Positions 13,357-29,804 of a DNA stretch of 64,000 nucleotides are shown here, piece by piece; the stretch's first letter is position 1; the number at the start of each line of letters is the position of its first letter. Under the pieces are notes generated by a model, which had not been told where the DNA came from, did not search any database, and saw only the letters and a program-made list of their open reading frames with translations. Made by a program: the position numbers and the translations under genes. This stretch comes from Myxococcota bacterium (GTDB taxonomy: Bacteria > Myxococcota_A > UBA9160 > SMWR01), in assembly GCA_050618055.1 (NCBI GenBank), contig JBNLVK010000248.1, forward strand, positions 5,788 through 69,787, given 5' to 3'.

Positions 13357-14397
13357 CTAGGCGTCGGCGTCGGCGTCGGCGTCGTCGTCGTCGCCGGCGC
13401 CCGACAGGCGGCCGATCGCCACGGTGCCGAGCAGGCCGCCGGCGATCAGCGCCAGCGCGGCGGCGACCTGTCCGCCGCTCGGGTCGAAGCGGCGCACCGC
13501 CCAGTCGTCGGGCTCGAACTCGGCGCGGTTCTCGACGGTGACGGTGCGGCCCTTCAGCACGTCGCCCGGCTCGGGCTCGACGCCCACCTGGAAGGGCCAC
13601 AGTCCCACCACCGCGCCGAGCAGCAGGCCCAGCAGGGCGCCCAGCGTGGCCTTCTCGTAGCGCTCGAGCAGCCACTTCAGCGCGTTGCTCACGCCGACCA
13701 CGCCCGCCGCCACGCCGAGGCCCAGCGGAATCACCAGCGCGAGCGCGTCGATCACCAGCGTGAGGTCGAAGCCGGTGCCGGCGGTCGGGTCGCCCAGCAG
13801 GCCCAGCTTCAGCTGGTCGATGGTGCCCAGGATGTTCTCGTACTGGCCGAGCAGCAGCAGCAGGTAGCCGCCGCTCACGCCGGGCAGGATCATGGCGGAG
13901 GCGGCGGCGAGCCCGGAGACGAACAGCATGAAGGCGCTGGCCGCCGCGGCGCCCGAGCCCGAGCTGCCGAAGGCCATGGCGCACATGACGGCGAAGGCGG
14001 CGGCCGCGGCTCCGTACACCGCACCGCTGGCCGGCCGCGCCATGCGCCAGATGAGCGGCACACCGCCGAGGGTCAGCCCGATGAACAGGCTGTACATCAC
14101 CCAGCGGTGTTCCACGACCAGCGACTTCACCGTGCCCGCCAGCAGCAGGATGCCGAGCGCCGCCGAGCCCACGATCGCCGCCAGCAGCACCAGCGAGCGC
14201 AGGCGGAAGCGCAGCGTGGTGACCTCGGCGATGCCGGCGATGAAGCCGGGGTAGACGCCGGCAGCCAGCAGCATGGTGCCGCCGCTGATGCCCGGCACCA
14301 GGTTCGCCAGGCCCATCAGCGTGCCGCCGATGACACCGCGGATCACCAGGACCGGCAGCGCCCCCTCGCGCGCGGGAGAACCGTTCTCGCTCGACAT
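13357..14397 (-). CDS. DUF368 family membrane protein (family recently linked to undecaprenyl-phosphate translocation, PopT-like)
   Basis: ATG 14397. Two copies of the hallmark motif (VPGISGGTMLL and LPGVSGGYLLL) and about 8 hydrophobic segments. Unusual acidic tail GDDDDADADADA. Confidence 0.85.
   Translation of the reverse strand: MSSENGSPAREGALPVLVIRGVIGGTLMGLANLVPGISGGTMLLAAGVYPGFIAGIAEVTTLRFRLRSLVLLAAIVGSAALGILLLAGTVKSLVVEHRWVMYSLFIGLTLGGVPLIWRMARPASGAVYGAAAAAFAVMCAMAFGSSGSGAAAASAFMLFVSGLAAASAMILPGVSGGYLLLLLGQYENILGTIDQLKLGLLGDPTAGTGFDLTLVIDALALVIPLGLGVAAGVVGVSNALKWLLERYEKATLGALLGLLLGAVVGLWPFQVGVEPEPGDVLKGRTVTVENRAEFEPDDWAVRRFDPSGGQVAAALALIAGGLLGTVAIGRLSGAGDDDDADADADA
13360..13392 (-). 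repeat. In-frame microsatellite (GGCGTC)x4 + (GTC)x3 encoding the DDDDADADADA tail of the DUF368 protein
   Basis: Direct reading of 13360-13392: ggcgtcggcgtcggcgtcggcgtcgtcgtcgtc. Confidence 0.7.
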
Positions 14398-14440
14398 GCT
14401 CGTCTTTCTCCCAGGGGGGGCGGCGCGGTACTGTAGCAGC

Positions 14441-15139
14441 GTGTGCGGACGCTTCACGCTGACCTCCACACCGGAAGCGCTGGCGCTGCGCTTCGAGCTC
14501 GACGCTCCGCCCGAGCTGGCTCCGCGCTACAACGTGGCCCCCACCCAGGACGTGCTGGCGATCCGCGCGCAGGCGGGACGTCGCTCGGCCCGCTCGGCTG
14601 ACTGGCTGCGCTGGGGACTCGTGCCGCCGTGGGCGAAGGACGCGTCGGTGGGGGTGCGCATGATCAACGCCCGCATCGAGTCGGTGACCTCGCGCAGCGC
14701 CTACCGCGAGGCGGTGACGGCGCGACGCTGCCTGGTGGCGGCCGACGGCTTCTACGAGTGGGCCGACCTGGGCGGCTTCAAGCAGCCCTACTACGCCACG
14801 CCCGCGGGCGGCGGACCGATCGGCTTCGCCGGCCTGTGGGAGCAGTGGCGCGACCCGGCGGGCCGCACGCTCGAGACCTGCACGATCCTCACCGCGGACG
14901 CGACGCCGGTGCTGCGCCGCGTCCACGACCGCATGCCGGTGGTGGTGGATCCGGCCGACCACGCGGCGTGGCTGGATCCGCGGCCCGGCGACGTCGATTC
15001 CCTGCTCGAGCGCCTGGGGGCGTCGAAGCCGGAGTGGCGTCTCCACCCGGTGAGCCCGCGGGTGAACCGGGCCGACGAGGACGACGCCTCCCTGGTGGCG
15101 CCGGTGCCCGAGCCGCCGCGGCAGGAAGCGCTGTTCTGA
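14441..15139 (+). CDS. yedK: SOS-response-associated peptidase (SRAP, YedK/HMCES family abasic-site processing protein)
   Basis: GTG 14441 gives the invariant N-terminus (M)CGRF. Other blocks: YNVAPTQ, MINARIES, CLVAADGFYEW, HDRMPVV. Confidence 0.9.
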   Translation: MCGRFTLTSTPEALALRFELDAPPELAPRYNVAPTQDVLAIRAQAGRRSARSADWLRWGLVPPWAKDASVGVRMINARIESVTSRSAYREAVTARRCLVAADGFYEWADLGGFKQPYYATPAGGGPIGFAGLWEQWRDPAGRTLETCTILTADATPVLRRVHDRMPVVVDPADHAAWLDPRPGDVDSLLERLGASKPEWRLHPVSPRVNRADEDDASLVAPVPEPPRQEALF

Positions 15140-15429: not shown

Positions 15430-16862
15430 GCCTCGACGTGCTGGGCGTCGTCGGGCTCGGCGTCTACCTGACGACGCTGGCGGTGATCGCCGAAGTCGCG
15501 CGCCGCTCGCGCCGCAGCGGTAGCCCGGCCGACCACTTCCTGGCGAACCGCGAGCTCGGCACCTTCGTGGTGTTCCTCACCCTGTACGCCACCGCCTACA
15601 GCGGCAACTCGCTGCTCGGCTACCCGGGCGAGGCCTACCGGCGCGGCTTCTCGTGGATCATGGCCACCGGCTTCATGATGTCGATCATCGTGGTCTTCCA
15701 CGCGCTGGTGCCGAAGCTGCGTCCGCTGGCGGTGGCCCACGGCTTCGTGACCCCCGGCGACTACGTGCGCCACCGCTTCGGCGACCGCGACGGCGGGCGT
15801 CCGCTCCAGCTGGCGGTGGCGCTGCTCATGATGGTCGCGCTGGCCAACTTCCTGTTCGCCCAGCTGAAGGCCATGGGCGTGATGGCGGAGCAGGTGACCG
15901 GCGGCATGGTCTCCTACGAGCTGGGGGTCGTGGTGCTGGCGGCCGTGATCCTGCTCTACGAGACCCTCGGCGGCATGCGCGCCGTCGCCTGGACCGACAC
16001 CGGCCAGGGCCTGCTGATGCTGGTGGGACTGGCCGCGCTGCTGGCCTGGCTGGTGGGCGACTCGGGCGGCTTCTCCGCCATCACCCGCGACATCGCACGG
16101 GTGCGTCCCGACGCGGTGCGGGTGCCGGACACCGCCGAGCGCTTCAACTGGGCCAGCACGATCGTGCTGCTCGGGCTGGCGAGCGTCGTCTACCCCCAGG
16201 CGATCCAGCGCGTCTACGCGGCGCGCAGCGGCGAGACGCTGCGGCGGGCCTTCGCGCTCATGACCTTCATGCCGCTCACCACGACGCTGGTGGTGACGCT
16301 GATCGGCCTGGCGGCGATCCCGCGCTTCGAGGGGCTGGGGGAGGTCGCCGCCGACCGGGTGATGCCGCTGTTGCTGGGCGCCTGGGCGGCGGAGGGACCG
16401 ATCCACGCGGGCGCGGCGGTGCTGGTCTTCCTGGGCGCGCTGGCCGCGATCATGTCCACCGCCGACTCGGTGCTGTTGTCCCTCGGCTCGATCGCCGCCG
16501 AGGACGTGGGGCGCCGCCGCCGCGACGATCCCGACACTACCCGCCTGGGCAAGCGCATCGCCGCGGTGGTGATGATCGGCATGGCGGGCGCCGCGCTGAT
16601 CGCCCGCGACGTGACGCTCTGGGGGCTCATCGAGCTGAAGATGGAGCTGCTGATCCAATGCGTGCCCGCCTTCCTGCTGGCGCTCCACTGGCGGCGGCTG
16701 CGCGCCGACGCGGCCTGCGCCGGGCTGGTGGTGGGCGCGACGATCGCCGTGGCGGGGGTCTTCCTCGGCATGAAGCGCATCGAGGGCATCCACATCGGCG
16801 TGATCGGGCTGGCGGTGAACGCGACGATCTGCGGGCTCGGCTCGCTGCGCCGCGCGCGCTAG
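15426..16862 (+). CDS. Sodium:solute symporter (SSS) family transporter
   Basis: GTG 15426. SSS N-terminal block HFLANRELGTFVVFLTLYATAYSGNSLLGYPGEAY and about 12-13 hydrophobic segments. The small-subunit + SSS gene arrangement is typical. Confidence 0.9.
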   Translation: MSLDVLGVVGLGVYLTTLAVIAEVARRSRRSGSPADHFLANRELGTFVVFLTLYATAYSGNSLLGYPGEAYRRGFSWIMATGFMMSIIVVFHALVPKLRPLAVAHGFVTPGDYVRHRFGDRDGGRPLQLAVALLMMVALANFLFAQLKAMGVMAEQVTGGMVSYELGVVVLAAVILLYETLGGMRAVAWTDTGQGLLMLVGLAALLAWLVGDSGGFSAITRDIARVRPDAVRVPDTAERFNWASTIVLLGLASVVYPQAIQRVYAARSGETLRRAFALMTFMPLTTTLVVTLIGLAAIPRFEGLGEVAADRVMPLLLGAWAAEGPIHAGAAVLVFLGALAAIMSTADSVLLSLGSIAAEDVGRRRRDDPDTTRLGKRIAAVVMIGMAGAALIARDVTLWGLIELKMELLIQCVPAFLLALHWRRLRADAACAGLVVGATIAVAGVFLGMKRIEGIHIGVIGLAVNATICGLGSLRRAR

Positions 16863-18631
16863 CGCCGGGCGCGGATCTCCGCCGCCAGCGCCGCGTTGCC
16901 CTGCTGCTCGGCCAGGACGATGGCGCGGTCTAAGGCGTCGCGGGCCTCGCCGCCGCGGCCGAGCTGGAGCAGCGCCAGCCCGCGCGACGACCAGGCGCCC
17001 GGCAGGTCGGGCAGGACCCCGAGGGCCTGGTCGGTGGCGGTGAGCGCCGCTTCTGCCTCGCCGCGCTCCAGGTGCACGAAGGCCAGGATCACCAGGGCCT
17101 CGGCGCGCTGGTGGCCGCGGGCCAGGCGGACGGCGTGGCGCGCGCGGCCCAGGGCCTCGGCGTGCTGGTCCGACAAGGCGAGCGCACGGGCCAGGCGCAT
17201 GTGGGCCCCGGCGTCGCGGGGTCGCAGGCGCAGCGCGCGTTCGTAGTGGAGGATCGCCCGCGTCCAGTCGCGGCGCTCGGCGTACACGTCGGCCAGCCCG
17301 CGATGGGTCGCCGCCCACTCGGGCCGGAGCGCGGCGGATCGGCGGAAGGCCTGCTCTGCCTCTTCGACGGCGCCGCGCAGCAGCAGCTCGCTGCCCACCC
17401 ACTGGTGGGCGAACCAGTTGTCCGGGTCGACCGCCACCGCGTGCCGGAAGAGCGTCTCGGTGTCGCGCCAGTGGCGCGTCTGGCGGTGGGCCGCGACGCC
17501 GAGCGCCAGCACGACGCAGAGCGCCGCGGCGCCGGCGGCGCGACGCGCCCCCGGCGAACGCACCGACCGGTCGACGCTCCACGCGAGGGCCAGGCAAAGA
17601 CCGACGAGCGGCAGGTAGGTGTAGCGGTCCGCACGGCCCTGCATGCCCACCTGCACCAGGCCCAGCACCGGCACGAGCATGCCCAGGAACCAGAGCCAGC
17701 CGACCAGCAGCCAGGGGGCGCGGCGGCGCAGCGCGAGGCCCGCGGCACTGATGGCGAGCAGCAGCACGCCGCAGGCGGCGACGGCGGACCACGCGAGCGC
17801 GTCCTGCGGGTGCGGGTAGAAGACGCTCAGGCCGCTCGGCCAGAACGCGTCGCGCAGGTAGAGCACCACCGAGAGCACGGCGTTGCCCACGCGCAGCGCG
17901 GGGTCGAGCAGGTCGCCGTGGTCCATGGATCCGTAGCGCTGCTGGGCGTAGACCGTGGCGATGCTGGCCAGGGCGGCGAGCGCCAGCAGCGGCAGCTTCT
18001 CCAGCACGGCGAGGCGCCGCTGCGCGGGGGTCTTCAGGCGATCCAGCGGCCAGGCGTCGAGCAGCAGCAGTACGCAGGGAAGCGTCACCAGCATGGGCTT
18101 GGTCAGCAGGCCCAGCGCGGTGGCGGCGACCACCGTCAGGTAGCGCCCCGTCGAGGGCGCCCGGGCGTACCCCACGTGGAGCCACAGGGCGAGGGCGAAG
18201 AACACCGCCGACAGCGTGTCCTTGCGCTCGGAGACCCACGCCACCGACTCGACGTGCAGCGGGTGGACGGCGAAGACGGCGGCCACGAACGCCGCCGGGG
18301 CCGGATCGCCGGTGGCGCGCCACAGGGCCGCGTGCAGCAGCAGGCTCGCCAGCAGGTGGAGCGCCACGTTTGTGGCGTGGTAGCCGGCCGGGTCGAGCCC
18401 GTGCCAGGCGTGATCGATCTGGAGCGAGATCCAGGTGAGCGGGATCCAGTTGGCCTCGTAGGGCTCGGCGAAGGCCCGGGCCATGGCGTCCAGGGTCGGA
18501 CCGCTGCGCAGCAGCGGGTTCTCGGTCACGTAGACCGGATCGTCCCAGCGCAGGAAGTCGTGGCCGGTGGTCTGCGCGAAGACGGCGAGCGTGGCAACCG
18601 CGATGGCCAGGGCCGCGAGGGCGGCCCTCAT
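16859..18631 (-). CDS. TMTC-like GT-C membrane glycosyltransferase domain (DUF1736/PMT_2-like) fused to C-terminal TPR repeats
   Basis: ATG 18631 overlaps the sulfatase stop (ATGA). Block FLRWDDPVYVTENPLL and about 10 TM segments. The C-terminal ~200 aa are TPR-like (WFAHQWVGSELLLRGAVEEAEQAFRRS, YERALRLRPRDAGAHMRLARAL). Confidence 0.8.
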   Translation of the reverse strand: MRAALAALAIAVATLAVFAQTTGHDFLRWDDPVYVTENPLLRSGPTLDAMARAFAEPYEANWIPLTWISLQIDHAWHGLDPAGYHATNVALHLLASLLLHAALWRATGDPAPAAFVAAVFAVHPLHVESVAWVSERKDTLSAVFFALALWLHVGYARAPSTGRYLTVVAATALGLLTKPMLVTLPCVLLLLDAWPLDRLKTPAQRRLAVLEKLPLLALAALASIATVYAQQRYGSMDHGDLLDPALRVGNAVLSVVLYLRDAFWPSGLSVFYPHPQDALAWSAVAACGVLLLAISAAGLALRRRAPWLLVGWLWFLGMLVPVLGLVQVGMQGRADRYTYLPLVGLCLALAWSVDRSVRSPGARRAAGAAALCVVLALGVAAHRQTRHWRDTETLFRHAVAVDPDNWFAHQWVGSELLLRGAVEEAEQAFRRSAALRPEWAATHRGLADVYAERRDWTRAILHYERALRLRPRDAGAHMRLARALALSDQHAEALGRARHAVRLARGHQRAEALVILAFVHLERGEAEAALTATDQALGVLPDLPGAWSSRGLALLQLGRGGEARDALDRAIVLAEQQGNAALAAEIRARR

Positions 18632-20019
18632 TCGGCGGGCTCGGCGGTGTAGCCCAGCGCCTCGAGCTGGCGGCGCTCCTGTTCGTCGACCGGGCGAAGG
18701 GGCGCCGCCGCCGCGGCCGTGCGCTCGTCGCGCAGCGCCCAGACCCGCTCGCGCAGCGCCGACGCCACGTGGGGGGCCGGCGCCGCCAGGTCGATCGACT
18801 CGTCGCCGCGACGGTGCAGGCGCGACGTCCAGACGCCGCTGCGAAGGGTGAGGATCAGCTTGTAGCCGTCGGCCACGATGCCGAGCCGCCGGTGGGGGTA
18901 GACGGCGAGGGTGGTGAGCAGCGGAACGCTCGCGCCCTGCGCCGCCTCCGGGGCGAGCAGGTCGCGGGTCGCGTCGGGCGAGGTCGGCGGCGCGTCGAGG
19001 AGCGCACCGAGCAGGGTGGGGTGCAGGTCCGCCAGGCGGGCGACGTCGCCGCGGCGCCCGGGCGCCAGGCCCGGCCAGCGCACGAAGAGCGGCACCCGCA
19101 GCAGCGGATCGGTCAGGTCGTTGCCGTGGGCGAACCAGTAGTCGTCTTCGCCCATCGACTCGCCGTGGTCGGCGGCGAACACCAGCCGCTCGCCCAGGCC
19201 CTTCTCGCGCAGCGCGTCGAGCAGGCGACCCAGCTCGCCGTCCAGGTAGGCGATCTCGCCGTCGTAGCCCGCCCGGTAGAAGGCGGCCTCGTCGTGCTCG
19301 TCGATCTGCTGGTAGCGCGGGATGCCGCCCTCGCCGTGGGAGCCGGCACCGGTGGGCAGGCGACGCGGGTCGCGGCTGCGCTCCGCCGCCAGGAAGCGCT
19401 CGCGCCAGCCCGGCGGCGGCGTGTACGGTCCGTGCGGATCCTGGTAGTGGACCCACAGGAAGAGCGGCGCGTCGGCGACCCGGGCGTCGCCCCGCCAGGT
19501 GTCGAGCAGGCGGATCGCCGCGTCGGTGGTGTCGGCGGCGATGCGCTCGGGCCAGCGCCGGATCGCCTCCTCCTGGAGCATGGTGTCGTCGTAGATCTCG
19601 AAGCCCTGGGCCACGTCTTCCCGGCCCCGTAGCACCGCGTTGCTCACCACCGCCGCCGTCTTCCAGCCGCGCTCGGCCAGCGCCTCGGCCAGCGTCAGCG
19701 CCTCGGGCGCCACCTCCGAGCTGTTGATCTGGAGACCCAGCGACAGCGGGTGGAGACCCGTGTGCAGCGACACCAGCGACGGCACCGTGAAGGGCGTAGG
19801 GGCGTAGGCCGCGTCGAAGACCAGGCTCTCGGCGGCCAGCGCGTCCAGGTTCGGGGTGAGGCCGCGCTCGCTGCCGTAGGCGCCCAGGCGATCGGCGCGC
19901 AGCGTGTCGACCGTGATCAGCACCAGCGCCGTCGGCGACGGCTCGTCGGTCGACCCGGGAGCGGAGCAGGCGAGCAGGGCCAGCGCGGCGGCGACGCAGG
20001 CGAGCGGCGCAGTGCGCAT
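18628..20019 (-). CDS. Sulfatase-family (alkaline-phosphatase superfamily) lipoprotein
   Basis: Lipobox MRTAPLACVAAALALLAC. Blocks VLITVDTLRADRLGAYG, TPFTVPSLVSLHTG, FAADHGES. Confidence 0.85.
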   Translation of the reverse strand: MRTAPLACVAAALALLACSAPGSTDEPSPTALVLITVDTLRADRLGAYGSERGLTPNLDALAAESLVFDAAYAPTPFTVPSLVSLHTGLHPLSLGLQINSSEVAPEALTLAEALAERGWKTAAVVSNAVLRGREDVAQGFEIYDDTMLQEEAIRRWPERIAADTTDAAIRLLDTWRGDARVADAPLFLWVHYQDPHGPYTPPPGWRERFLAAERSRDPRRLPTGAGSHGEGGIPRYQQIDEHDEAAFYRAGYDGEIAYLDGELGRLLDALREKGLGERLVFAADHGESMGEDDYWFAHGNDLTDPLLRVPLFVRWPGLAPGRRGDVARLADLHPTLLGALLDAPPTSPDATRDLLAPEAAQGASVPLLTTLAVYPHRRLGIVADGYKLILTLRSGVWTSRLHRRGDESIDLAAPAPHVASALRERVWALRDERTAAAAAPLRPVDEQERRQLEALGYTAEPAE

Positions 20020-20990
20020 CAGGCGCCGTCCCCGGCGAGCCTCTCGAACAGCGCCTCCAGTGCCTCGGCCGTGCGCTCCGGATCGTGGCGCACCAGCGAG
20101 GTGCCCGACATGACCGGAGCGCGCACCACGTGGCGCACCCCGAGCCGGGCGAGCTCGTCCTCGTCGAGCTCCACCGGGTGGGCGGCCTCGGCCTCGTAGC
20201 GTGCGGTCAGCGCCGCCGGGATCTCGCCGCGGTTGGCGAGCACCGCGTCCGGCACGCGACCCGCGTAGCGCGCCAGCTCGGACACGTGGCGCGACGCCGG
20301 GTAGCCGCTGGTCTCCCCGTAGCGGGTCATCAGGTTCAGGATGTAGACGAGCCGCGCCGGCGTGCGGCGCAGCGCGTCGCCGATGCCGTCCACCAGCAGG
20401 TTCGGGATCGACGACGTGTAGAGGTCGCCCGGCGCCAGCACCACGAAGTCGCTGCTGGCGATGGCGTCGAGCGCGTCCGGGTTGGCGCGGGCCGGCGGCT
20501 CCAGGTAGACGCGCTCGATGGGCGCCGCGCTCGGCACGTCGGGCACGCCGATGTTCGCCTCGCCTTCCAGCAGCGTTCCGTCGGCCAGCTCGGCGTAGAG
20601 GTGGGGGTGGTCCCAGGTGACCGGCAGCACGCGCCCGCGCACGTCGAGCAGGCGCGAGAGGGCGTCGATGGCGGCCTTCTCCGAGCCCAGCGTGCGCGTG
20701 AGCGCCAGCACGAACAGGTTGCCGAAGCTCCTTCCCTCGAGCGGCGCCTCCTCGAAGCGGAAGCCGAACAGGTCGCGCAGCAGATCCGATTCGCCGGACA
20801 GCGCGACCAGGCAGCGCCGCAGGTCGCCCGGCGGCAGCAGGCCGAACTCGTCGCGCAGCCGGCCCGAGTCGCCGCCCGAGTCCATCATGGTCACGACCGA
20901 GCGGATCTCGAGGTCGGGCCGACGCCGCAGGCCGGAGAGCACGTGGAAGGATCCGGTGCCCCCGCCGATCACCGTGACCGCGCGCTTCAC
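20019..20990 (-). CDS. YvcK / CofD-like (UPF0052, 2-phospho-L-lactate transferase fold) protein
   Basis: VTVIGGGTGSFHVLSGL, MMDSGGDSGRLRDEFGLLPPGDLR, GPGDLYTSSIPNLLV. Confidence 0.85.
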   Translation of the reverse strand: MKRAVTVIGGGTGSFHVLSGLRRRPDLEIRSVVTMMDSGGDSGRLRDEFGLLPPGDLRRCLVALSGESDLLRDLFGFRFEEAPLEGRSFGNLFVLALTRTLGSEKAAIDALSRLLDVRGRVLPVTWDHPHLYAELADGTLLEGEANIGVPDVPSAAPIERVYLEPPARANPDALDAIASSDFVVLAPGDLYTSSIPNLLVDGIGDALRRTPARLVYILNLMTRYGETSGYPASRHVSELARYAGRVPDAVLANRGEIPAALTARYEAEAAHPVELDEDELARLGVRHVVRAPVMSGTSLVRHDPERTAEALEALFERLAGDGA

Positions 20991-20996
20991 GGACGT

Positions 20997-23180
20997 CTAG
21001 CCGGTGGCCCAGTCCGCCAGCTCGGGCAGCAGCCGGGCTTCGGGAAGCTCCGCGCGCCACTGCTCGCAGAGCCACGCGACCGAGGTCTTGATGGCGGGCA
21101 GGGCGTCGGTGCCGGGGGTCATGGCGCCCACCGCCTCGCCGAGCCAGGCGAGCAGGCCGTCGAGGTCGGCGTGGGTTCCGTCGGAAAGGGCCTGGCGCAG
21201 GGCGGGCACCGTCGCGCTCTCGAACTCGACCTTGCGGTCCAGGTCGACGATGTCGGGCAGCAGCAGCGCCGCGGTTCCCAGCGAGGCGTCGATGCGCCCC
21301 AGCAGGTCGGCATAGATCTGCCGGGCGATCTCGTCGGCGCGCGCGCGGACGGCGCCCAGCAGGGCGGCCCCGCGCTCGGAGGGCGGCGCGTCGGCGGGCA
21401 GCAGCTGGCAGTAGAGCTTGAGCTTGGGCTCGGTGCCCGACGGCCGGATCGTCACCACGAATGCGTCGGTGGTGATCTGGATGACGTTGCGCGGCAGCCG
21501 GTCCGACGCGCTCACGAACGGGCCGAACTCCTTCTCGTCCCAGAAGTCGAGGACCTGGCGCACCGGCTCGCCCGCGACCGTGGTGGGCGGGCTCTCGCGC
21601 AGCGACTCCATGATCCGGTCCTTCTTCAGGATGCCCTCGGCGCCGAGCATGACGATGGAGCGGTTCACGTTGTCGTAGCTGCCCAGCCGCTCGAGGATGC
21701 CCACGTAGTAGTCGAGCAGCGTGCGGCCGCGTGCGCTCTCGCGCTGGTGCAGGGCCGCCAGGTACATGCAGGCCGGCGACGCATCCTTGTCGCGGATGCC
21801 CGGCAGCATGATCACGCCGTGGCTCTCCTCGGCGGCCAGGACCAGGCGGTCGGTGGGGACGCGGACGCCGCGGTAGTCCTCGCCGCGGTCCAGGCGCTTC
21901 AGCACGTCGGCCACGTACTTGAAGCCGACCAGCAGGTCGTCGATCACCACCGAGTCGCCGGCCTCCTCGACCACGCGGCCCAGCATCTTGGTGGTGACCA
22001 GCGTCTCGATCACCAGTCCCTTCCGCTGCGGACCCTCCGGGTCGAGCATCAGGTAGTAGGCCAGGATCGCCGCGATCTGGTTGCCGTCGAAGTGGAACCA
22101 GCTGCCGTCGGCCAGCCGGATCTCCAGGCCCACCCGGTCGGCGTCCGGATCGCTCGACAGCACGATGGTGGAGTCCTGGGTCTCGGCGTAGGCGCGGGCC
22201 GGGGCGGTCGCCTGGGCCACCTCCGGGTTGGGCGCGCGGAAGGGGATGGCCGCGAAGCTGCCGTCGGGCCGCTCGTCGTCGGGCACGCGCAGCGGAAAGC
22301 CCAGCCGCTCGAGCACGGCGCCCGCCGTGTTGAGCCCCACGCCGCACAGCGGCGTGAAGGTGATGGGGTCGTCGGTGGGCGTGTGGATGCCGCCGTAGAG
22401 CTTCTCGTAGAGGTCGACGTAGGTCTTGTGGCAGTGCTCCGGCACCGCCTTGACCAGCCCCTTCGACAGGGCGTCGGCGAAGGGCAAGGAGCTCACCTCG
22501 GTGGCGTTCTCCATCACGTCGATCAGCGCCTGGTCGTCCGGTGCGATGGGCTGGCTGCCGAAGCCGTCGTAGGTCTTCACGCCGTTGTCGTCCGGCGGGT
22601 TGTGGGAGGCGGAGAGGTTGATGCCGCCCAGCGCCTCGAGCTCGGCGATCAGGAAGGAGAGCTCCGGCGTGGCGAGCACCGAGGCGTCGTCCTCGGGGCT
22701 CGAGGTCCAGGCGGTGATGCCGTTGCCCGCGTAGATCTCGCAGGCCAGCCGCGCCAGCGACCGGGACGACACGCCCAGCAGCGGGTGGTCCCCGCCCAGG
22801 AAGCCGTAGGTGCCGGCCATGTCGCGGAACACACGCACGTCGTTGGCCACCACCACCTGCAGGTCGTCGCGGTCCGGATGGGCGGTCTTCAGGTAGTTGC
22901 AGTGGCCCTGGACCGTCATGGCGACGGTCGTCTCGTTCATGCGGTTGCTGCCGTAGCCCACGCGGCCGCGCCGCCCACCGGTGCCGAAGGGCAGCACCTG
23001 CCAGAAGGCGTCGAACAAGAGGTCCAGGTGGTCCGTGCCCAGGTGGCGTTCCAGGGTCTCCGGGTGGGCGTAGGGCAGGTCGCCCGAAATCCACTGGCGC
23101 AGGCGGCGGGCGGCGTCGTCGCCGCCGTCGCCGTAGCGCTCGCGCAGCGCGTCGCAGGTCCTGTCGAGTGCTTGGCTCAT
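20997..23180 (-). CDS. Alpha-D-phosphohexomutase family protein (long phosphoglucomutase/phosphomannomutase-like form)
   Basis: Phosphoserine loop NLSASHNPPDDNG, metal loop SSDPDADRVG, sugar loop AAEESHGV. Confidence 0.85.
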   Translation of the reverse strand: MSQALDRTCDALRERYGDGGDDAARRLRQWISGDLPYAHPETLERHLGTDHLDLLFDAFWQVLPFGTGGRRGRVGYGSNRMNETTVAMTVQGHCNYLKTAHPDRDDLQVVVANDVRVFRDMAGTYGFLGGDHPLLGVSSRSLARLACEIYAGNGITAWTSSPEDDASVLATPELSFLIAELEALGGINLSASHNPPDDNGVKTYDGFGSQPIAPDDQALIDVMENATEVSSLPFADALSKGLVKAVPEHCHKTYVDLYEKLYGGIHTPTDDPITFTPLCGVGLNTAGAVLERLGFPLRVPDDERPDGSFAAIPFRAPNPEVAQATAPARAYAETQDSTIVLSSDPDADRVGLEIRLADGSWFHFDGNQIAAILAYYLMLDPEGPQRKGLVIETLVTTKMLGRVVEEAGDSVVIDDLLVGFKYVADVLKRLDRGEDYRGVRVPTDRLVLAAEESHGVIMLPGIRDKDASPACMYLAALHQRESARGRTLLDYYVGILERLGSYDNVNRSIVMLGAEGILKKDRIMESLRESPPTTVAGEPVRQVLDFWDEKEFGPFVSASDRLPRNVIQITTDAFVVTIRPSGTEPKLKLYCQLLPADAPPSERGAALLGAVRARADEIARQIYADLLGRIDASLGTAALLLPDIVDLDRKVEFESATVPALRQALSDGTHADLDGLLAWLGEAVGAMTPGTDALPAIKTSVAWLCEQWRAELPEARLLPELADWATG

Positions 23181-23207
23181 TCGCTTCCGATGGCTTGGGG
23201 TGGTCGT

Positions 23208-24284
23208 CTAGCGCAGGCCGAGGCGCTCGCGCTGGTAGGAGCCGCTCTGGACCGCCTCGCACCAGGCGCGGTGGGCCAGGTACCAGGCGACCGTCTCGGC
23301 GAGACCGGTCTCCAGGTCGTGGGCGGGCTCCCAGCCGAGGTCGCGCCGGGCGCGGCTGGCGTCGATGGCGTAGCGCCGGTCGTGGCCGGGACGGTCGTCG
23401 ACGAAGGTCTTGAGCTCGGCGTAGCCGTCGACGCCCGCGCGCTGGAGCGCCTCGTTCTCGCGGGCCGGAAGCCGGCGCTCGAGCTCGGCGCACAGCGCGT
23501 CCACGATCTCCAGGTTGGTGCGCTCGGCGTTGCCGCCCAGGTTGTACTTCTCGCCGGGGGCGCCCTCGCGCAGCGCGCGCATCACGCCGGCGCAGTGGTC
23601 CTCGACGTAGATCCAGTCGCGCACGTTGCCGCCGTCGCCGTAGATCGGCAGCGGCTTGCCCTCCACCGCGTTCAGGATCATCAGCGGGATCAGCTTCTCC
23701 GGGAACTGGTAGGGCCCGTAGTTGTTGGAGCAGTTGGTGATGAGCGTCGGCAGGCCGTAGGTCTCGTGGTAGGCGCGGACCAGGTGGTCGGCGCCAGCCT
23801 TCGAGGCGGAGTAGGGCGAGTTGGGCTCGTAGGGGGTGGTCTCGGAGAAGGCGCCGGTCTCGCCCAGGCTGCCGTAGACCTCGTCGGTCGAGACGTGCAG
23901 CAGGCGGAAACGCTGCTTCTGGGCGTCGGAGAGCGAGGCCAGGTGGCGGCGGCACGCCTCCAGCACCTCGAAGGTGCCGGTCACGTTGGTGTGGATGAAG
24001 GCGGCCGGCCCGTCGATCGAGCGGTCGACGTGGGTCTCGGCGGCGAAGTTCAGCAGGGCCTGGGGCCGGTGGGCCGCCAGCGTCGCGTCGAGCCGGGTCG
24101 GATCGGCGATGTCGCCCTCGACGAACACGAAGTTCGCGTCGTCCGCCACGTCTTCCAGGCTCTTCAGGTTGCCGGCGTAGGTGAGCTTGTCGTAGACGAC
24201 GACGCGCACGCCGTCGGCCAGGGCCATGCGGACGAAGTTGCTGCCGATGAAGCCGGCGCCGCCGGTGACGATCCAGGTGTCCAT
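23208..24284 (-). CDS. rfbB: dTDP-glucose 4,6-dehydratase
   Basis: VTGGAGFIGSNF, YSASKAGADHLVRAY, NCSNNYGPYQFPEKLIPL. Full-length colinear SDR-extended architecture. Confidence 0.95.
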   Translation of the reverse strand: MDTWIVTGGAGFIGSNFVRMALADGVRVVVYDKLTYAGNLKSLEDVADDANFVFVEGDIADPTRLDATLAAHRPQALLNFAAETHVDRSIDGPAAFIHTNVTGTFEVLEACRRHLASLSDAQKQRFRLLHVSTDEVYGSLGETGAFSETTPYEPNSPYSASKAGADHLVRAYHETYGLPTLITNCSNNYGPYQFPEKLIPLMILNAVEGKPLPIYGDGGNVRDWIYVEDHCAGVMRALREGAPGEKYNLGGNAERTNLEIVDALCAELERRLPARENEALQRAGVDGYAELKTFVDDRPGHDRRYAIDASRARRDLGWEPAHDLETGLAETVAWYLAHRAWCEAVQSGSYQRERLGLR

Positions 24285-24287
24285 CTT

Positions 24288-25217
24288 CTAGACGTAGTTG
24301 CCGGCCTTGGGCATGGAGAGGCGGCTGTTGGCCTGCTTGTAGCGGGCGACTTCGTCGCGCAGGTCGCGGGTGGAGACCGGCGTCGACGTCTCGCCGGCCG
24401 CCTCGCAGCGGGCTTTGCGGCGGAGGGTCGCGTGCAGGATGTGCACCCAGTCGCCGGGCGCCGGGTGGTGGAAGTCGTGGGTGGCGGCGCGCCAGTCGAT
24501 CTCCTCGAACAGCGGACGACCCGCCCGCTTCTCGGCCGCGGCTGCGTGGATGCGCAGCGCCTCGATGATGTCGTCCGGGAAGATGGGCGTCACCTCGACC
24601 ACCCGCTCCAGGCGGCCCGGCTGGGCGAAGGCCTGGCGCAGCGTGTCCGGGTGCGCCGTCGACCCGACCACCAGCACGTTGTCGAGCGCGATGGTGCGGT
24701 CGAGCAGGTCGAGCAGGAAGTCCATCACCGGACCGACCGGCTGGTCGGGCCGCCGCGCGCCGATCTCCTCGGCCTGCGAGAACTCGAGCTCGTTGAAGAA
24801 GACGGTGACCGGCGGCATCTCGGAGAGCGTGTCGGACCAGGCGGTCACCAGGTCGCCCACCTTGCCGCCGCGGTGGATGACCTCGAGCACCAGGCGCGGG
24901 ACGGTCACGCCCAGGAAGCCGGTCTCGGTGCGCGCGGCCAGCGAGCGGGCCAGCAGCCGCTTGCCCACGCTGCGCCCGCCGATCAGCAGCAGTCCCGAGG
25001 GCGGATGGGTTCCCCAGCGCGCGTACACGTCCGGATCGGTGGCCGCGCAGGCGTAGGTCTGGATCTCGTCCTTGGCCGAGGTGAGCCCGCCGATCTCCGA
25101 CAGGTCCATGTCCGGCATCGGCTCGAGCGCGGTGGCCTGCTCGATCGGCGCGAACTTGCGCGCGAAGCTGGTCCAGAGGTTCTGGGCCCGTTCGCGGCGG
25201 ACGTGGCGGTCTTCCAT
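24288..25217 (-). CDS. AAA+ ATPase-like protein with degenerate catalytic motifs (probable pseudo-ATPase)
   Basis: Colinear with classic FtsH/Cdc48-type AAA modules, but Walker A reads GGRSVGKR (vs GPPGTGKT) and Walker B reads VFFNELE (vs IFIDEID). The sensor-1 position reads GSTA (vs ATN). The Arg-finger region QPGRLERVV is retained. Confidence 0.7.
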   Translation of the reverse strand: MEDRHVRRERAQNLWTSFARKFAPIEQATALEPMPDMDLSEIGGLTSAKDEIQTYACAATDPDVYARWGTHPPSGLLLIGGRSVGKRLLARSLAARTETGFLGVTVPRLVLEVIHRGGKVGDLVTAWSDTLSEMPPVTVFFNELEFSQAEEIGARRPDQPVGPVMDFLLDLLDRTIALDNVLVVGSTAHPDTLRQAFAQPGRLERVVEVTPIFPDDIIEALRIHAAAAEKRAGRPLFEEIDWRAATHDFHHPAPGDWVHILHATLRRKARCEAAGETSTPVSTRDLRDEVARYKQANSRLSMPKAGNYV

Positions 25218-25290
25218 GGTGAGGCATTCTAGCCCGATGGGGTGGGCTCGGCCCCGCCGATCGGGTCGCCGAGCCGACAGCCGCGCCGTG

Positions 25291-26778
25291 CTAGCTCGTG
25301 GCGGCCCCGGAGGAGAAGAGATCGGCGATCTTGCCGTCCACCGAGGCGGGGCGCGCGCGGCCGCGGGACCAGTCCCGCAGCTCCTTGATGCGCTCCTCGT
25401 AGGTCTCGTAGATCGGGACCGTCTCCTCGATGGCGCGGATCAGGTCGGCGTCGGTGACCTCGCGACCGGCCGAGAAGGCGCCGTAGAGCGCGGCGGTCAC
25501 CACCTGCTCGAGCTCGGCGCCGGTGAGCCGCTCGGACGCCAGCGACAGCTGCTCCAGGTCGAACTGGAGCGGATCGCGGCCGTGGCGGGCCAGGTGGATC
25601 GACAGCACCTCGGCGCGCTCGGCCTGGGTGGGCAGGTCGACGAAGAACAGGTCGTCGAAGCGGCCGCGGCGCAGCAGCTCCGGCGGGAGCCCGGCCACGT
25701 CGTTGGCCGTCGCCACCACGAACACCGGCGCCTGCTTCTCGGCCAGCCAGGTGAGGAAGGATCCCAGCACACGGGTGGCGGTGGTGTCCTCGGAGCTGGC
25801 GGCGAAGCCCTTCTCGATCTCGTCGATCCACAGCACGGCCGGCGCCACCGACTCGGCCACCTGCATCGCCTCGCGCAGCAGCGCCTCGGGGCGGGCGCCG
25901 CTGCCGCCGAAGGCGGAGGCCAGGTCGAGGCGCAGCAGCGGGAAGTGCCACTCTCGCGCCACCGCCTTGGCGGAGAGCGACTTTCCGCAGCCCTGCACGC
26001 CCAGTAGCAGCAGGCCGCGGGGCAGCGGCACGCCGAAGCGGCGTGCGTCGTCGGAGAAGGCGCGGCGGCGTTCTGCCAGCCAGCGCTTCAGCTCGCCCAG
26101 GCCGCCCACGTCCTGGAGCTCGGTGTCGTCGTCGTGGAAGGTGAGGGCGGGGGTGCGGCGCAGGGCGTGGCGCTTGTCGCGCACGATCTGCTGCACCGCC
26201 TCCTTGTCGAGGGCGCCCGACTGGCGCAGCGCCCGCCGCAGCATGCGCGTGGCCTCGGATCCGGTGAGCCCCAGCGCGCCGCGCACCGCCAGCGACAGCA
26301 CCTCCTCGTCGACCGGCAGCTTCATCTGCTCGGTGACCCGGCGGAACAGGCGGTCCATCTCCGGCGCGTTGGGCAGCGGCAGGCTCACGCGCCCGACCTC
26401 GCGCACCAGCTCCATGGGCAGGTCGAAGGCCGGACCCACCAGCACGATGCACTGGCGCCGCGACGCCAGCGTCGGCAGCAGGTCGCGCAGGCGGCGCACC
26501 GCGATCGGATCCTCCAGCACCCGGTGGGCGTCGAGCATCACGAACACGGCGGGATCGTCCCGCTCCTCGATGGCCTGGAGGCCGGCGTCGAGGGATCCGT
26601 GGCCCTCGCCGCTGCTGCCCAGGCCGAGCGCCACCGACCAGGTCGTGCACGGGCGCTCCAGCGCCTCGGCCACCCGCTCGAGCAGCGACACGGCGCGCTC
26701 CTCCTCGAAGGTCTCCAGGGCCAGCAGGCGCCAGCCGGCGCGGATCAGCGCGCGAAGCTCTTCGGCGGGGGGCGTCAT
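25291..26778 (-). CDS. Ycf46-like AAA+ ATPase (N-terminal regulatory domain + one intact AAA module)
   Basis: ATG 26778 overlaps the GspE stop (ATGA). Walker [19 protein letters not shown], Walker [12 protein letters not shown], sensor/Arg finger [30 protein letters not shown]. Overall pattern resembles the cyanobacterial/plastid Ycf46 family. Confidence 0.85.
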
Positions 26779-28646
26779 TCGGTGTCCGCCGTCACGCGGG
26801 CCACCTCTTCGAAGGTGGTGACGCCGTCTGCCAGCTTGCGCAGGGCCGCCTCGCGCAGGCTGTCCATGCCCTCGATGCGGCCGGCGTGGTGGATCTCGTT
26901 GGCGTCCTTGCCCTGGTTGATGAGCGTCCGGATGCGGCGGCCCACGTCGAGCATCTCGAACACGCCGCTGCGGCCGTAGAGGCCGGTGTGGCGGCAGTCG
27001 ACGCAGCCCTCGCCCCAGCGGACCACCAGCTGCTCGCGCCGCTCCGCCGGGATCTTGATGCCGAGCGCGGTGACCTGGTCCGGGTTGAGCGTGCCCTCGA
27101 CGCCGCAGCTCGGGCAGATCTTGCGGATCAGCCGCTGGGCGACCACGCCGCGCAGCACGCTGGAGAGCAGGAACGGCTCGACGCCCAGCTCGATCAGGCG
27201 GGCGACGGCGCCGGCCGCGTTGCGCGTGTGCAGGGTCGAGAACACCAGGTGGCCGGTGAGCGCCGCCTGCACCGCCATGTTGGCGGTGTCGCCGTCGCGC
27301 ACCTCGCCCACCATGATGATGTCCGGGTCCTGGCGCAGGATCGTGCGCAGGGCCGTGGCGAAGGTGACGTCGATCTGCGGGTTCACCTGCACCTGGCAGA
27401 AGCGCGGGTCCACCATTTCGATCGGATCTTCGACGGTGGTGATGTTGATCTCGGGGCCGGACAGGTAGCGGAGGGTCGAGTAGAGCGTGGTCGTCTTGCC
27501 GGATCCGGTGGGGCCGGTGACCAGGATCAGCCCGTTCGGACAGGTGATCCACTTCTCGAAGCGCTCGCGCTCGTCGGCGGTGAGGCCCAGGTCCTGGAGG
27601 TCGGTCATCAGCACCGACGGATCGAACACGCGCACGACGATCTTCTCGCCGTAGGCGGTGGCCATGCTCGAGACGCGCAGCTCCACCTCGCCCTGGGCGC
27701 GCTGGGTCTTGATGCGCCCGTCCTGGGGGCGGCGCCGTTCGGCGATGTTCATGCCGGCCAGCACCTTCACCCGCGAGGTGATGGCGCCGTGCACCGGCAG
27801 CGGCACCTGCTCGATGTCGTGCAGGATGCCGTCGATGCGGAAGCGCACCACCGCGTCGTCGGCCCGCGGCTCCAGGTGGATGTCGCTGGCGCGCTGCTCG
27901 AAGGCGTAGTTCAGCAGGTAGTCGACCGCGGCGACCACGTGCTCGTCGTTCTGGCTGGCGGCCAGCTCGTCGCTGCTGCGCAGCTCGACCATCTGCACCA
28001 GGCGGCCGTGCTGCTGCGAGGCGCCCAGGCGCTCCTCGGCCCGGTCGACCTGGGAGCGGAAGCCGTAGACGCGGTCGATGACCTTGATGATGTCGCTCTT
28101 GGCCGAGACGACCGTGCGGATGGGAGCATCGATCGTCTGGGTGAGCTGCTCGCGGAGCGCCGTGTCGAAGGGGTCGGCGATGGCGAGGACGATGCCGTCC
28201 TTGTCGCGTCCGACCGGGATCACCACGTGGCGCCGCGCGAAGGGACGGGAGAGGGTCTTGGCGACCAGGTCGTTGTCGATCTTCAGCGAGTCGATCTTCA
28301 GGTAGGGCGAGCCGGACGCCTTCCCCAGGGCCTCGGCGATCTTGTCCTCGCCGATCATGCGGCCGTCCGGCGCCTTCAGGTTGGCGGCGGTCACCAGCTC
28401 GGCCGGCGACACGTCGTAGCGGCTGGCGGCCTGCGAGCGCACCGAGCCCACCCGGTCCTTCAGCACGGCACTGCGCAGGGTGGTGGAGCGCGCCTCGATC
28501 TTCCTGGCCTGCTCCGGGGCGAGCAGCTCCTGGCCCACCAGGTGCTCGAGCAGCTCCTCGAGGCCCAGGGCCGGGCGGATCCCGCTGCGTTGGATCTTGG
28601 CGGGCGCAGCGCCCGCGGCCTTCTCTGCCGTCGGATCGTTCTCCAC
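26775..28646 (-). CDS. GspE/PilB-family type II/IV secretion-type ATPase with T2SSE_N (MshEN-like) N-terminal domain
   Basis: GTG 28646 (GGGGA upstream). Walker [13 protein letters not shown], Asp box, Walker [10 protein letters not shown], His box LVFSTLHT, tetracysteine CPSC...CVDC. No PilC/GspF, pilin or secretin gene in the window. Confidence 0.9.
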
Positions 28647-28746
28647 GTCCCCGTATCGGTCGCACGCGGCCGGATCTCCAGTGGCGCGTGGGGCGTCAGC
28701 AGGGTGTCCGCAGGCTCCAGTATTCCCCGAGTGTTCGACGGCGCGC

Positions 28747-28762
28747 TGCCGGTATGCTGCCA
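28747..28762 (-). promoter_or_regulatory. Possible sigma-54 (-24/-12) promoter upstream of the GspE-led operon
   Basis: Minus strand reads TGGCAGCATACCGGCA versus consensus TGGCAC-N5-TTGCA. GG and GC have the correct 10-nt spacing. It lies about 100 nt upstream of GTG 28646. This is a single weak match, and no enhancer-binding protein gene was seen. Confidence 0.25.
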
Positions 28763-28766
28763 GCCC

Positions 28767-29420
28767 GTGAGCCCCGCCAACACGACTCCCGCCCCTGCGC
28801 GCCTCGACGCCCCCACCCTCGCGCGGGCGCGCCGCCACCTGATGCGCCGCGACCCGAAGCTGGCGGAGATCTGCCGCGAGGTGGGCGCCTGCTCGATGGA
28901 GCAGCGGGGCGATCCCTACCGGGCGCTGGTGCGCTCGGTGGTCTTCCAGCAGCTGGCCGGAAGCGCGGCCCGCGCCATCGACGCCCGGCTGCGCGCGCCG
29001 CACCGGGGTCGCTACCCGAAGCCGGCCGACCTGCTGGCGCTGCGCACCGCCGACCTGCGCAAGGCGGGCCTTTCGCGCCAGAAGATCGCCGCCGTGCGCG
29101 CGGTCGCCGAGGCGTTCGACTCGGGCGAGCTCGACAACCGGAGGCTGCGGCGCATGGACGACGACGCGGTGGTGGAGGCCGTCACCCGGGTGAAGGGCAT
29201 CGGCACCTGGACCGCCCACATGCTGCTGATGTTCTCGCTGGGGCGGCCCGACGTGCTGCCGGTGGGCGACTACGGCGTGCGCAAGGGCGCCATGCTGCTC
29301 TACGGCCTGCCGGAGCTGCCGAAGGCCGACGCGCTCGGCGCGCTGGCCGAGCCCTGGCGCCCCTACCGGAGCGTCGCGTCCTGGTACCTGTGGCGCGCGA
29401 CCGAGACGATCACGCCGTAG
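28767..29420 (+). CDS. DNA-3-methyladenine glycosylase II-like (HhH-GPD, AlkA C-terminal-domain type)
   Basis: In-frame GTG at 28767 (alternative GTG 28731). Blocks VVFQQLAGSAARAI, HhH VKGIGTWTAHMLLMFSLGRPD, catalytic Asp LPVGDYGVRKG, WRPYRSVASWYLW. Confidence 0.85.
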   Translation: MSPANTTPAPARLDAPTLARARRHLMRRDPKLAEICREVGACSMEQRGDPYRALVRSVVFQQLAGSAARAIDARLRAPHRGRYPKPADLLALRTADLRKAGLSRQKIAAVRAVAEAFDSGELDNRRLRRMDDDAVVEAVTRVKGIGTWTAHMLLMFSLGRPDVLPVGDYGVRKGAMLLYGLPELPKADALGALAEPWRPYRSVASWYLWRATETITP

Positions 29421-29429
29421 CCCGAAGGG

Positions 29430-29804
29430 CTAGCGCGAGCAGGTCACTCCGGCCGGCTGGTAGAGGATCTTGTCGCCCTCGCCGTAGATGCAGCTGCCGC
29501 CCTTCTTGCGGGGCGCTGCGGGTGCCGCGTTCGGATCGGTCAGGCCCAGGCGGTCCATGCCCTTGTCGAGCTGGCGCTCGCGGTGCTGGTAGTACCGCTC
29601 GCTCTGCTCCTTCTGGTGCTCCTGCCACTCCCGGCGGGCCTGCTCCCGCTCCTCCCGGTAGCGCTCCTCACGCTCCTCCCGCTCCCATTCCTCCGCGTAG
29701 TTGCGGCGGCGGCTGCTGCGGGCGTCGGCGGGCTCGGGGAGCACGAAGGTGGCCACCACGACCAGTCCGAAGGCGACGCTGAGGGTTCGAAGAAACGTGT
29801 CCAT
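29430..29804 (-). CDS. Hypothetical small secreted protein: Glu/Arg-rich coil + C-terminal Cys-bracketed hairpin
   Basis: Signal/anchor MDTFLRTLSVAFGLVVVATFVL, then EEWEREEREERYREEREQARREWQEHQKEQ, ending in CIYGEGDKILYQPAGVTC (DUF4124-like). Confidence 0.55.
   Translation of the reverse strand: MDTFLRTLSVAFGLVVVATFVLPEPADARSSRRRNYAEEWEREEREERYREEREQARREWQEHQKEQSERYYQHRERQLDKGMDRLGLTDPNAAPAAPRKKGGSCIYGEGDKILYQPAGVTCSR

Follow-up and report, generated by a model that had tools for sequence, protein, structure and literature searches.

A conserved gene pair of Myxococcota predicted to encode a TfpB-like ATPase and a Cdc48-like AAA+ protein, with a putative role in type IV pilus biogenesis

Introduction

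The present work concerns a 64-kb stretch of DNA from a Myxococcota bacterium (GenBank assembly GCA_050618055.1, contig JBNLVK010000248.1, positions 5,788 to 69,787), referred to here as the window, and in particular eight tightly packed minus-strand genes within it, termed g1 to g8. The first of these is predicted to encode a PilB/GspE-family ATPase related to the pilus motor TfpB, and the second a Cdc48/p97-like AAA+ protein. An original prediction, made from the sequence of the window, had viewed all eight genes as a single operon, the ATPase of which might energize the export or assembly of a glycoconjugate. Comparison with related genomes indicates otherwise: the cluster consists of three unrelated layers of synteny, namely g1-g2, g3-g4 and the lineage-specific neighbors g5-g8, and the best reading of these data is that g1-g2 is the conserved functional unit. 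We lean toward the view that this pair comprises a TfpB-like accessory pilus motor, which would act in trans upon pilus genes located elsewhere in the genome, and a Cdc48-like AAA+ protein dedicated to it.

Results

Organization of the locus

The host is a metagenome-assembled genome (MAG) of 5.5 Mb in 314 contigs that is 84% complete. Codon-position GC and a frame plot of GC at third codon positions (GC3) reveal unbroken coding on the minus strand from 16859 to ~28650, and the gene models of all eight genes (16859-28646; Table 1) coincide with those of the original prediction, as do their junctions when read directly from the DNA. Stop and start codons overlap by 4 nt (ATGA) at g1/g2 and g7/g8 and by 1 nt (TGATG) at g6/g7, while the gaps measure 73 nt at g2/g3, 3 nt at g3/g4, 27 nt at g4/g5 and 6 nt at g5/g6. 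The ATGA overlap points to translational coupling of g2 to g1. The cluster has a convergent sodium:solute symporter gene on one side and a divergent HhH-GPD glycosylase gene on the other, and the window, which has a GC content of ~73%, exhibits no anomaly of composition.

Table 1. Features of the cluster, numbered from the first nucleotide of the window.
Feature	Position	Strand	Basis
g1: TfpB-like PilB/GspE-family ATPase, 623 aa	26775..28646	-	PF00437 410 bits, PF05157 64 bits; MshEN-fold N-domain, N2 domain, ATPase core
g1 N-terminal region, residues ~28-200: predicted MshEN/GSPII fold without c-di-GMP-binding residues; has clade signature	28047..28565	-	AF2, Foldseek and motif scan
g2: Cdc48/p97-like AAA+ ATPase, 495 aa	25291..26778	-	PF00004 86 bits; start overlaps g1 stop (ATGA)
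Spacer g2-g3, 73 nt, widest gap of the cluster	25218..25290	-	DNA read
g3: catalytically degenerate single-domain AAA protein, 309 aa	24288..25217	-	PF00004 40 bits
g4: dTDP-glucose 4,6-dehydratase (RfbB/RmlB), 358 aa	23208..24284	-	TIGR01181 471 bits vs 365 cut-off
g5: long phosphohexomutase-family protein, 727 aa	20997..23180	-	PGM/PMM domains I-IV; active-site SASHNP
g6: YvcK/CofD-related UDP-GlcNAc-binding protein, 323 aa	20019..20990	-	TIGR01826 295 bits vs 196 cut-off
g7: alkaline-phosphatase-superfamily ("sulfatase" Pfam) lipoprotein, 463 aa	18628..20019	-	PF00884 123 bits; lipobox LLAC
g8: polytopic membrane protein, six hydrophobic segments and C-terminal TPR domain, 590 aa	16859..18631	-	TPR families above cut-off

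Synteny of the cluster

In a census of 225 species genomes of the host's class, orthologues of g1 and g2 were found in 117 and 119 genomes, respectively, and both together in 110. In 102 of these 110, g1 immediately precedes g2 on the same strand (median gap between high-scoring segment pairs, 20 nt), while in the remaining 8 they are split across contig ends; no genome of the class carries both on one contig in a non-adjacent arrangement. Each of the two is present in a single copy, and throughout the class they are inherited vertically (60-80% identity) in a fixed synteny. The locus search with g1 listed relatives of <=50% identity, and close orthologues were taken from the genome search. 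In other Myxococcota classes, the adjacency recurs in 5 of 20 sampled cases, as well as in the genome G260 and in a locus of 40% GC (L018). A further candidate, L154, was rejected as a paired locus, its neighbor being merely a 34%-identical PilT-like fragment, and it was counted as unpaired.

Whether the remaining six genes belong with this pair can be judged from the same comparison. That all eight encode one machine, in which a GspE-like ATPase and an AAA+ pair energize the export or assembly of an envelope glycoconjugate, would be consistent with their co-directional arrangement with overlaps or gaps of <=73 nt, with the outcome of a simple scan, which turned up neither promoter-like nor terminator-like sites inside the cluster (an outcome that says nothing at 73% GC), and with their products, among them RfbB, a phosphohexomutase, YvcK, a lipoprotein hydrolase and a TPR membrane protein. 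The whole eight-gene set also recurs in one other genome (locus L128). However, orthologues of g3 are encoded by 192/225 genomes of the class (54-75% identity), including families devoid of g1-g2. In the window's own family, here termed f1, g3 directly follows g2 in all 33 resolvable genomes, whereas g3-g4 stand beside g1-g2 in none of 45 genomes elsewhere; in three complete genomes outside f1, g3 resides 1.2-2.4 Mb away from the pair. The adjacency of g3 and g4 is seen in 9/9 f1 loci, and in other families RfbB follows g3 in 5/9 genomes, at sites remote from g1-g2. Since g3-g4 persist at such a distance from g1-g2 outside f1, they are an independent module, and the border between two separately conserved modules runs through the 73-nt spacer. 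Between g4 and a conserved flank is a slot of variable content, filled here by the last four genes, and it differs even inside f1: g5 is present in 4 of the 9 f1 loci and g6 in 3, while g7 and g8, and hence all four, are limited to the window and L128. For the majority of the class, g2 is followed by a gene that is unrelated or lies on the opposite strand. A glycoconjugate-exporting machine encoded by all eight genes is thus largely refuted by synteny, and we regard it as highly improbable; because g3-g4 form a separate module and g5-g8 are variable, gene linkage provides no basis for it.

The original prediction had proposed following the order GspE-like, Ycf46-like, pseudo-AAA and rfbB through related genomes. 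Its first half proved constant (102/102 resolvable genomes), whereas g3-g4 stand beside g2 only in f1, such that linkage is absent in relatives for genes 3 to 8 and retained for genes 1 and 2. What had been flagged as an unfamiliar combination of genes is therefore no unit as a whole, although the g1-g2 coupling within it is conserved, and in the literature searched we found no description of a Cdc48-like AAA+ protein that is paired with an ATPase of the PilB/TfpB type.

Several further observations were made at these loci. A g3 and RfbB pair lies away from g1-g2 at loci L184, L186, L188, L191 and L192; we know of no explanation for a conserved pairing of a pseudo-ATPase with RfbB. In three f1 loci from other genera, the slot after g4 contains, instead of g5-g8, a gene for a receiver and HD-GYP protein (a c-di-GMP phosphodiesterase type; assigned by eye, no Pfam; L131:7383-8513, L132:7593-8723 and L133:7504-8634), followed by a gene for a DnaJ-domain protein. 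The conserved flank downstream of the slot includes, in the window, a VCA0040-like gene (DUF368, undecaprenyl-phosphate translocase-like; 13357-14469, minus strand). The neighbors of unlinked g1 and unpaired g2 homologues are housekeeping genes (Nth-like, GpsA-like and DUF1499-like; by eye, no Pfam scan) that yield no functional lead, and a GpsA-like gene (also by eye) is the sole recurrent neighbor of g2 homologues in other classes. Finally, the HhH-GPD/Nth-like glycosylase gene of the window (28731-29420, plus strand) is divergent from g1, and an Nth-like gene (by eye; L167:7200-7829) is likewise divergent from the unlinked g1 orthologue of G236, a complete genome of another class, which suggests that g1 holds an old syntenic position that g2 either entered or left.

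Identity of the g1 ATPase

The g1 protein is a member of the T2SSE superfamily (PF00437, 410 bits vs a gathering score of 24.9) and its motifs are intact, including Walker A (GPTGSGKT), the Asp and His boxes and the zinc tetracysteine (CPSC/CVDC). Its best NCBIfam model is TfpB (612 bits), followed by GspE (512) and PilB (509), and it falls below the equivalog cut-offs of both PilB (TIGR02538, 675.65) and GspE (TIGR02533, 630.25). TfpB is also the best model for distant g1 orthologues (656-671 bits), and its score exceeds those of PilB and GspE by about 100-130 bits in g1 and these orthologues alike. The host paralogues pass their own cut-offs, the ATPase of contig C113 as PilB (818) and that of contig C234 as GspE (687).

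Phylogenetic placement of the ATPase, as the original prediction had recommended, leads to the same assignment. In a maximum-likelihood tree, a fully supported split (Shimodaira-Hasegawa-like approximate likelihood ratio test, SH-aLRT, 100; length 0.99) separates the g1 group and proteobacterial TfpB from PilB and GspE, with the latter two represented by Myxococcota sequences and with proteobacterial PilB, GspE and MshE outside the tree. The TfpB side also takes in relatives from Acidobacteriota, Nitrospirota and Thermodesulfobacteriota. In each of five complete genomes of other classes, exactly one g1 orthologue is encoded, which matches at 590-650 bits and aligns from ~residue 30; it is well set off from the PilB/GspE paralogues of the same genomes, which reach <=386 bits and align from ~residue 97. 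By these sequence criteria, g1 is assigned to the TfpB clade of the PilB/GspE family. TfpB of Acinetobacter baylyi is an experimentally demonstrated second type IV pilus extension motor, which is phylogenetically distinct from PilB, is not syntenic with pilC and has a proposed role in pilus initiation (Ellison et al. 2021, PMC8213720; reviewed in PMC11656802). Because TfpB is a motor encoded apart from its platform, an orphan GspE/PilB-type ATPase of this clade is of an already known kind.

The N-terminal domain of g1 likewise sets it apart from the paralogues. It matches PF05157 (MshEN; 64 bits vs 23.1), and an AlphaFold2 (AF2) model of residues 2-241, with a predicted local distance difference test (pLDDT) score of 84, adopts the MshEN/GSPII fold. 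Its Foldseek matches include Thermus PilF GSPII-B, Vibrio MshE (5htl; target template modeling (TM) score 0.68), the Xanthomonas citri PilB-N/PilZ complex (7lkm) and XpsE (2d27), with E values of ~1e-6 and target TM scores of 0.62-0.68 for 5htl, 8pdk and 7lkm. We searched for the cyclic di-GMP (c-di-GMP) motif of MshEN domains, a tandem 24-residue RLGxx(L/V/I)(L/V/I)xxG(L/V/I)(L/V/I)xxxxLxxxLxxQ (PMC5013675), in both strict and relaxed forms. Neither form occurs in g1 and 21 orthologues, and the tandem RLG...Q motifs are kept in the host PilB, GspE and third paralogue as well as in ten paralogues of other Myxococcota. The N-terminal resemblance to MshEN, which had been described as loose, is therefore one of fold, with the binding motif missing. 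The N-domain of XpsE, one of the structural matches, is described as not binding c-di-GMP (PMC5013675). The N-terminal helix-hairpin is homologous between g1 and TfpB, and the g1 group has an additional conserved N-domain insertion of ~20 residues relative to TfpB. With the fold retained and the c-di-GMP-binding residues lost, the g1 N-domain probably serves for docking to proteins rather than for sensing a nucleotide.

Two candidate features near the g1 start were examined. A sigma-54-like element (TGGCAG-N5-CGGC) is located at 28747-28762 on the minus strand, ~116 nt upstream of g1; as a conserved g1 promoter it was rejected, since a strict match is present in 0/32 related upstream regions, and it is probably a chance match. 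The open reading frame (ORF) at 29430-29804, earlier called DUF4124-like, has no Pfam match at E <= 0.001.

The g2 AAA+ protein

The C-terminal half of g2 is a canonical classical AAA domain, with a PDB sequence match to the D2 domain of VCP/p97 (1e-41), and its Walker A, Walker B, sensor-1 and arginine finger residues are invariant in 41 homologues. The AF2 model of the protein (pLDDT 84) matches the Cdc48/p97 D1-D2 tandem from end to end in Foldseek (E 1e-22), with TM scores of 0.60/0.58 against substrate-bound Cdc48 (8u7t_A), while its N-terminal, D1-like domain is devoid of Walker motifs. Thus, g2 is predicted to be a Cdc48/p97-like type II AAA+ protein with a dead D1, in which only D2 could be active. 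Residue F290, which appears to occupy the pore-loop position, is nearly invariant. The "SpoVK/Ycf46/Vps4 family" label is a generic COG0464 designation, and no DUF1257/DUF2997-like neighbor of the Ycf46 type appeared in the gene-order analysis. A second g2 paralogue, 38-47% identical and not located beside a T2SSE gene, is also encoded in many of the class genomes (G024, G025, G213, G214-G223 and others).

Weak matches of the g2 AAA domain to PADLOC IetA (2e-18) and NCBIfam IteA (2e-16) might be taken to suggest that the pair is a mobile anti-phage defense cassette. These matches reflect generic AAA-domain similarity, however, and the PADLOC defense models returned nothing specific for g1 or g3 and only this domain-level IetA similarity for g2. 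The vertical inheritance, single copy number, fixed synteny and unremarkable composition described above all argue against mobility, and no IetS-like partner is present. We therefore give almost no credence to a defensive role.

Pilus machinery of the host and of related genomes

Having no platform gene in its vicinity, g1 would require one from elsewhere. With clean PilC and GspF ORFs as queries, no T2SSF homologue was found either in the window or in 52 related neighborhoods, and no prepilin motif was found in the window. This upholds the original observation that platform, pilin, secretin and prepilin peptidase genes are lacking around the ATPase; the secretins and the peptidase are located on other contigs. 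Apart from g1, the genome as a whole encodes three full-length T2SSE ATPases, and the gene of each is adjoined by a T2SSF platform gene and a secretin gene; T2SSF genes number four in total. Contig C113 carries PilB-PilT-PilC together with PilQ, C234 a GspE-type type II secretion system (T2SS) set and C36 the prepilin peptidase; the contig of the window has no further genes of this kind. The third T2SSE/T2SSF/secretin set is found on C109 (L005, L012; G000), and its ATPase falls below all NCBIfam equivalog cut-offs (PilB 491, GspE 471) and sits on a very long tree branch of 2.35 substitutions per site. T2SSF is also present in 5/5 g1-bearing genomes that lack a PilB match. In G099, an assembly of 10 contigs with g1-g2 and no PilB match at E <= 1e-180, one T2SSF gene (G099:C5:325971-326955) appears to be split into several short open frames, which may reflect either assembly indels or a decaying pilC.

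In some genomes, the g1 clade is directly associated with pilus genes. Four genomes of the class belonging to two genera (G112, G143, G145 and G146) encode, on one strand, g1 and g2 followed by genes for a FimT/GspH-like prepilin, PilV, PilW, PilX and PilY1, and in each this is a second minor-pilin set, besides the one near PilB. In a Thermodesulfobacteriota MAG (locus L025), the order is GspH, prepilin, PilW, PilX, PilY1 and DUF4124, with the TfpB-like ATPase as the last gene; the DUF4124 protein (L025:9147-9791) is encoded between PilY1 and the ATPase. Prepilin genes also lie 2-4 kb downstream of tfpB at two loci of Psychrobacter. Minor pilins and PilY1 constitute a complex that primes pilus assembly, and for this reason such a context fits the initiation role that has been proposed for TfpB.

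The presence of three ATPase/platform/secretin sets also allows for g1 powering either the T2SS on C234 or the unclassified set on C109 in place of the type IVa pilus, particularly as the C109 ATPase reaches no equivalog cut-off and g1 itself scores about equally as GspE and PilB (512 and 509). Each set already has an adjacent ATPase, however, and the sole filament genes found beside the pair are those of type IVa minor pilins (PilV/W/X) and PilY1. As TfpB, too, acts on the type IVa pilus, we consider another filament system to be an unlikely target of g1.

Remaining genes of the cluster

The degeneracy that had been ascribed to g3 is borne out by all nine orthologues (9/9): relative to active AAA proteins (Walker A GK[S/T], Walker B hhhhDE, sensor-1 Asn), Walker A reads GK[R/Q/E/S], Walker B [N/D/H/R]E and sensor-1 is His, and in the QPGR motif the first arginine finger is lost. 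The possibility that g3 is a recent duplicate of g2 was rejected, its similarity to g2 being weak. Among the domain labels first given to the cluster, those of MshEN/T2SSE, AAA, RfbB, phosphohexomutase, YvcK and lipoprotein stand, and that of Ycf46 is generic, as noted above. Despite its PF00884 fold match, g7 lacks the formylglycine motif C/S-x-P-x-R in a sequence motif check. For g8, the match to PMT_2 (17 bits vs a gathering score of 26.1; E = 0.007) and the six hydrophobic segments with TPR are compatible with a GT-C glycosyltransferase but non-diagnostic, and the GT-C assignment is weak.

Discussion

The g1-g2 pair bears on how bacteria decide the time and place at which a type IV pilus is started. 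We propose that g1 would most likely dock in trans on a type IVa pilus machine whose genes lie apart from it (PilB-PilT-PilC and PilQ on C113) and there serve as an accessory or priming motor, and that g2 would remodel, load or recycle the g1 hexamer or the pilus-priming complex. The pair may thereby have a pilus role in this organism as well. A more specific version of this scheme, in which g2 is a Cdc48-like unfoldase dedicated to a TfpB-class motor and either loads, resets or disassembles the motor hexamer or the minor-pilin/PilY1 priming complex, is one that we can put forward only tentatively.

Several observations weigh against assigning the pair to the pilus. Firstly, g1 is not a full match to its namesake. 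At 612 bits, it remains below the TfpB (NF053534) equivalog cut-off of 850, which is passed by Acinetobacter (1061 bits) and Pseudomonas (974 bits) controls in the same search, and on the basis of this shortfall the g1 group is classed as a sister of TfpB rather than as TfpB proper. Secondly, the pairing is not universal. Of five complete genomes from other classes, four have g1 and the g2 homologue unlinked, and the g2 tree intermingles paired with unpaired members. Thirdly, pilin genes lie beside the pair in only 4/102 class genomes and beside only ~4/80 clade members overall (~4% of loci), although such rarity is expected, because this gene family is known for sitting away from pilus genes. 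Fourthly, PilB is encoded by 182/225 genomes of the class and the pair by about half (117/225). Being missing from roughly half of the PilB-bearing genomes, the pair is dispensable for pili and hence an accessory. As a discriminator, the phyletic profile of PilB was discarded, since PilB is near-universal and its profile is uninformative. Lastly, it is fold and linkage that suggest the role of g2.

Some of these same observations would be compatible with a pair that has left the filament altogether. In such a scenario, g1-g2 would be a cytoplasmic two-ATPase module without a filament, in which a former motor serves as a signaling or scaffold protein together with an unfoldase, for example in the regulation of exopolysaccharide (EPS) or envelope synthesis. 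None of the 52 neighborhoods has a platform gene near the pair, the pair is missing from many PilB-bearing genomes, it adjoins sugar-nucleotide genes in f1, and Myxococcus xanthus PilB is reported to act as a signaling protein that regulates EPS (PMC5544727). Conversely, g1 retains all of the catalytic motifs as well as the zinc tetracysteine of working motors, and its nearest characterized relative is a working pilus motor. Furthermore, the pair or its clade shares operons with minor pilins and PilY1 in two phyla, whereas the linkage to sugar genes is restricted to a single family. We consider a filament-free module to be possible but doubtful, and we continue to favor, by a modest degree of confidence, an accessory pilus motor with a dedicated AAA+ partner.

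If the latter is true, the control of type IV pilus initiation would include an ATP-driven remodeling step, which no pilus system described so far is known to have. TfpB has demonstrated that a separately encoded second motor can take part in initiation. Here, across a bacterial class and among scattered relatives, the gene for a TfpB-like motor and that for a Cdc48-type unfoldase form a fixed pair, which in some genomes is tied to minor-pilin/PilY1 priming genes as well. As a consequence, g1-g2 offers a concrete two-protein system for asking whether pilus motors are actively remodeled. The cluster also illustrates the limits of tight spacing as evidence, given that eight packed, co-directional genes resolve into three layers of synteny.

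When compared with known systems, the pair combines features of several. Like PilB, GspE and MshE (TIGR02538, TIGR02533; PDB 5tsg, 3jc8, 4ksr, 5htl), g1 belongs to the T2SSE superfamily and shares its domain order, Walker, Asp and His boxes and zinc tetracysteine, but it is separated from the Myxococcota PilB and GspE clades by a long, fully supported branch, scores below both cut-offs, has no adjoining platform gene and lacks the tandem c-di-GMP motifs. Extension ATPases are also known to have dedicated regulators, such as PilZ-FimX on the N-domain of X. citri PilB and CpiA on A. baylyi PilB (reviewed in PMC11656802). The use of the N-domain as a docking site for such regulators has a parallel in the match of the g1 N-domain model to the PilB-N/PilZ structure 7lkm, although the known cofactors include no AAA+ ATPase, and AAA+ partners are unmentioned in that review. 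Among the type II unfoldases Cdc48, p97 and VAT, g2 differs in its lack of an N-terminal adaptor-binding domain, in a D1 without Walker motifs and in its length of only 495 aa, yet it aligns over its full length to D1-D2 and its D2 motifs are canonical. The closest system overall is TfpB. The differences are that g1 scores below the equivalog cut-off (612 vs 850), contains the N-domain insertion and has a Cdc48-like AAA+ gene translationally coupled to it; none of the 79 non-Myxococcota-type clade members examined has such a gene at its side. In common with TfpB, g1 is a PilB-family extension-type ATPase without synteny to pilC or pilD, falls in the same tree clade, has TfpB as its best NCBIfam model, carries both the helix-hairpin and an MshEN-fold domain without the RLG...Q motif, and is occasionally encoded together with pilin genes.

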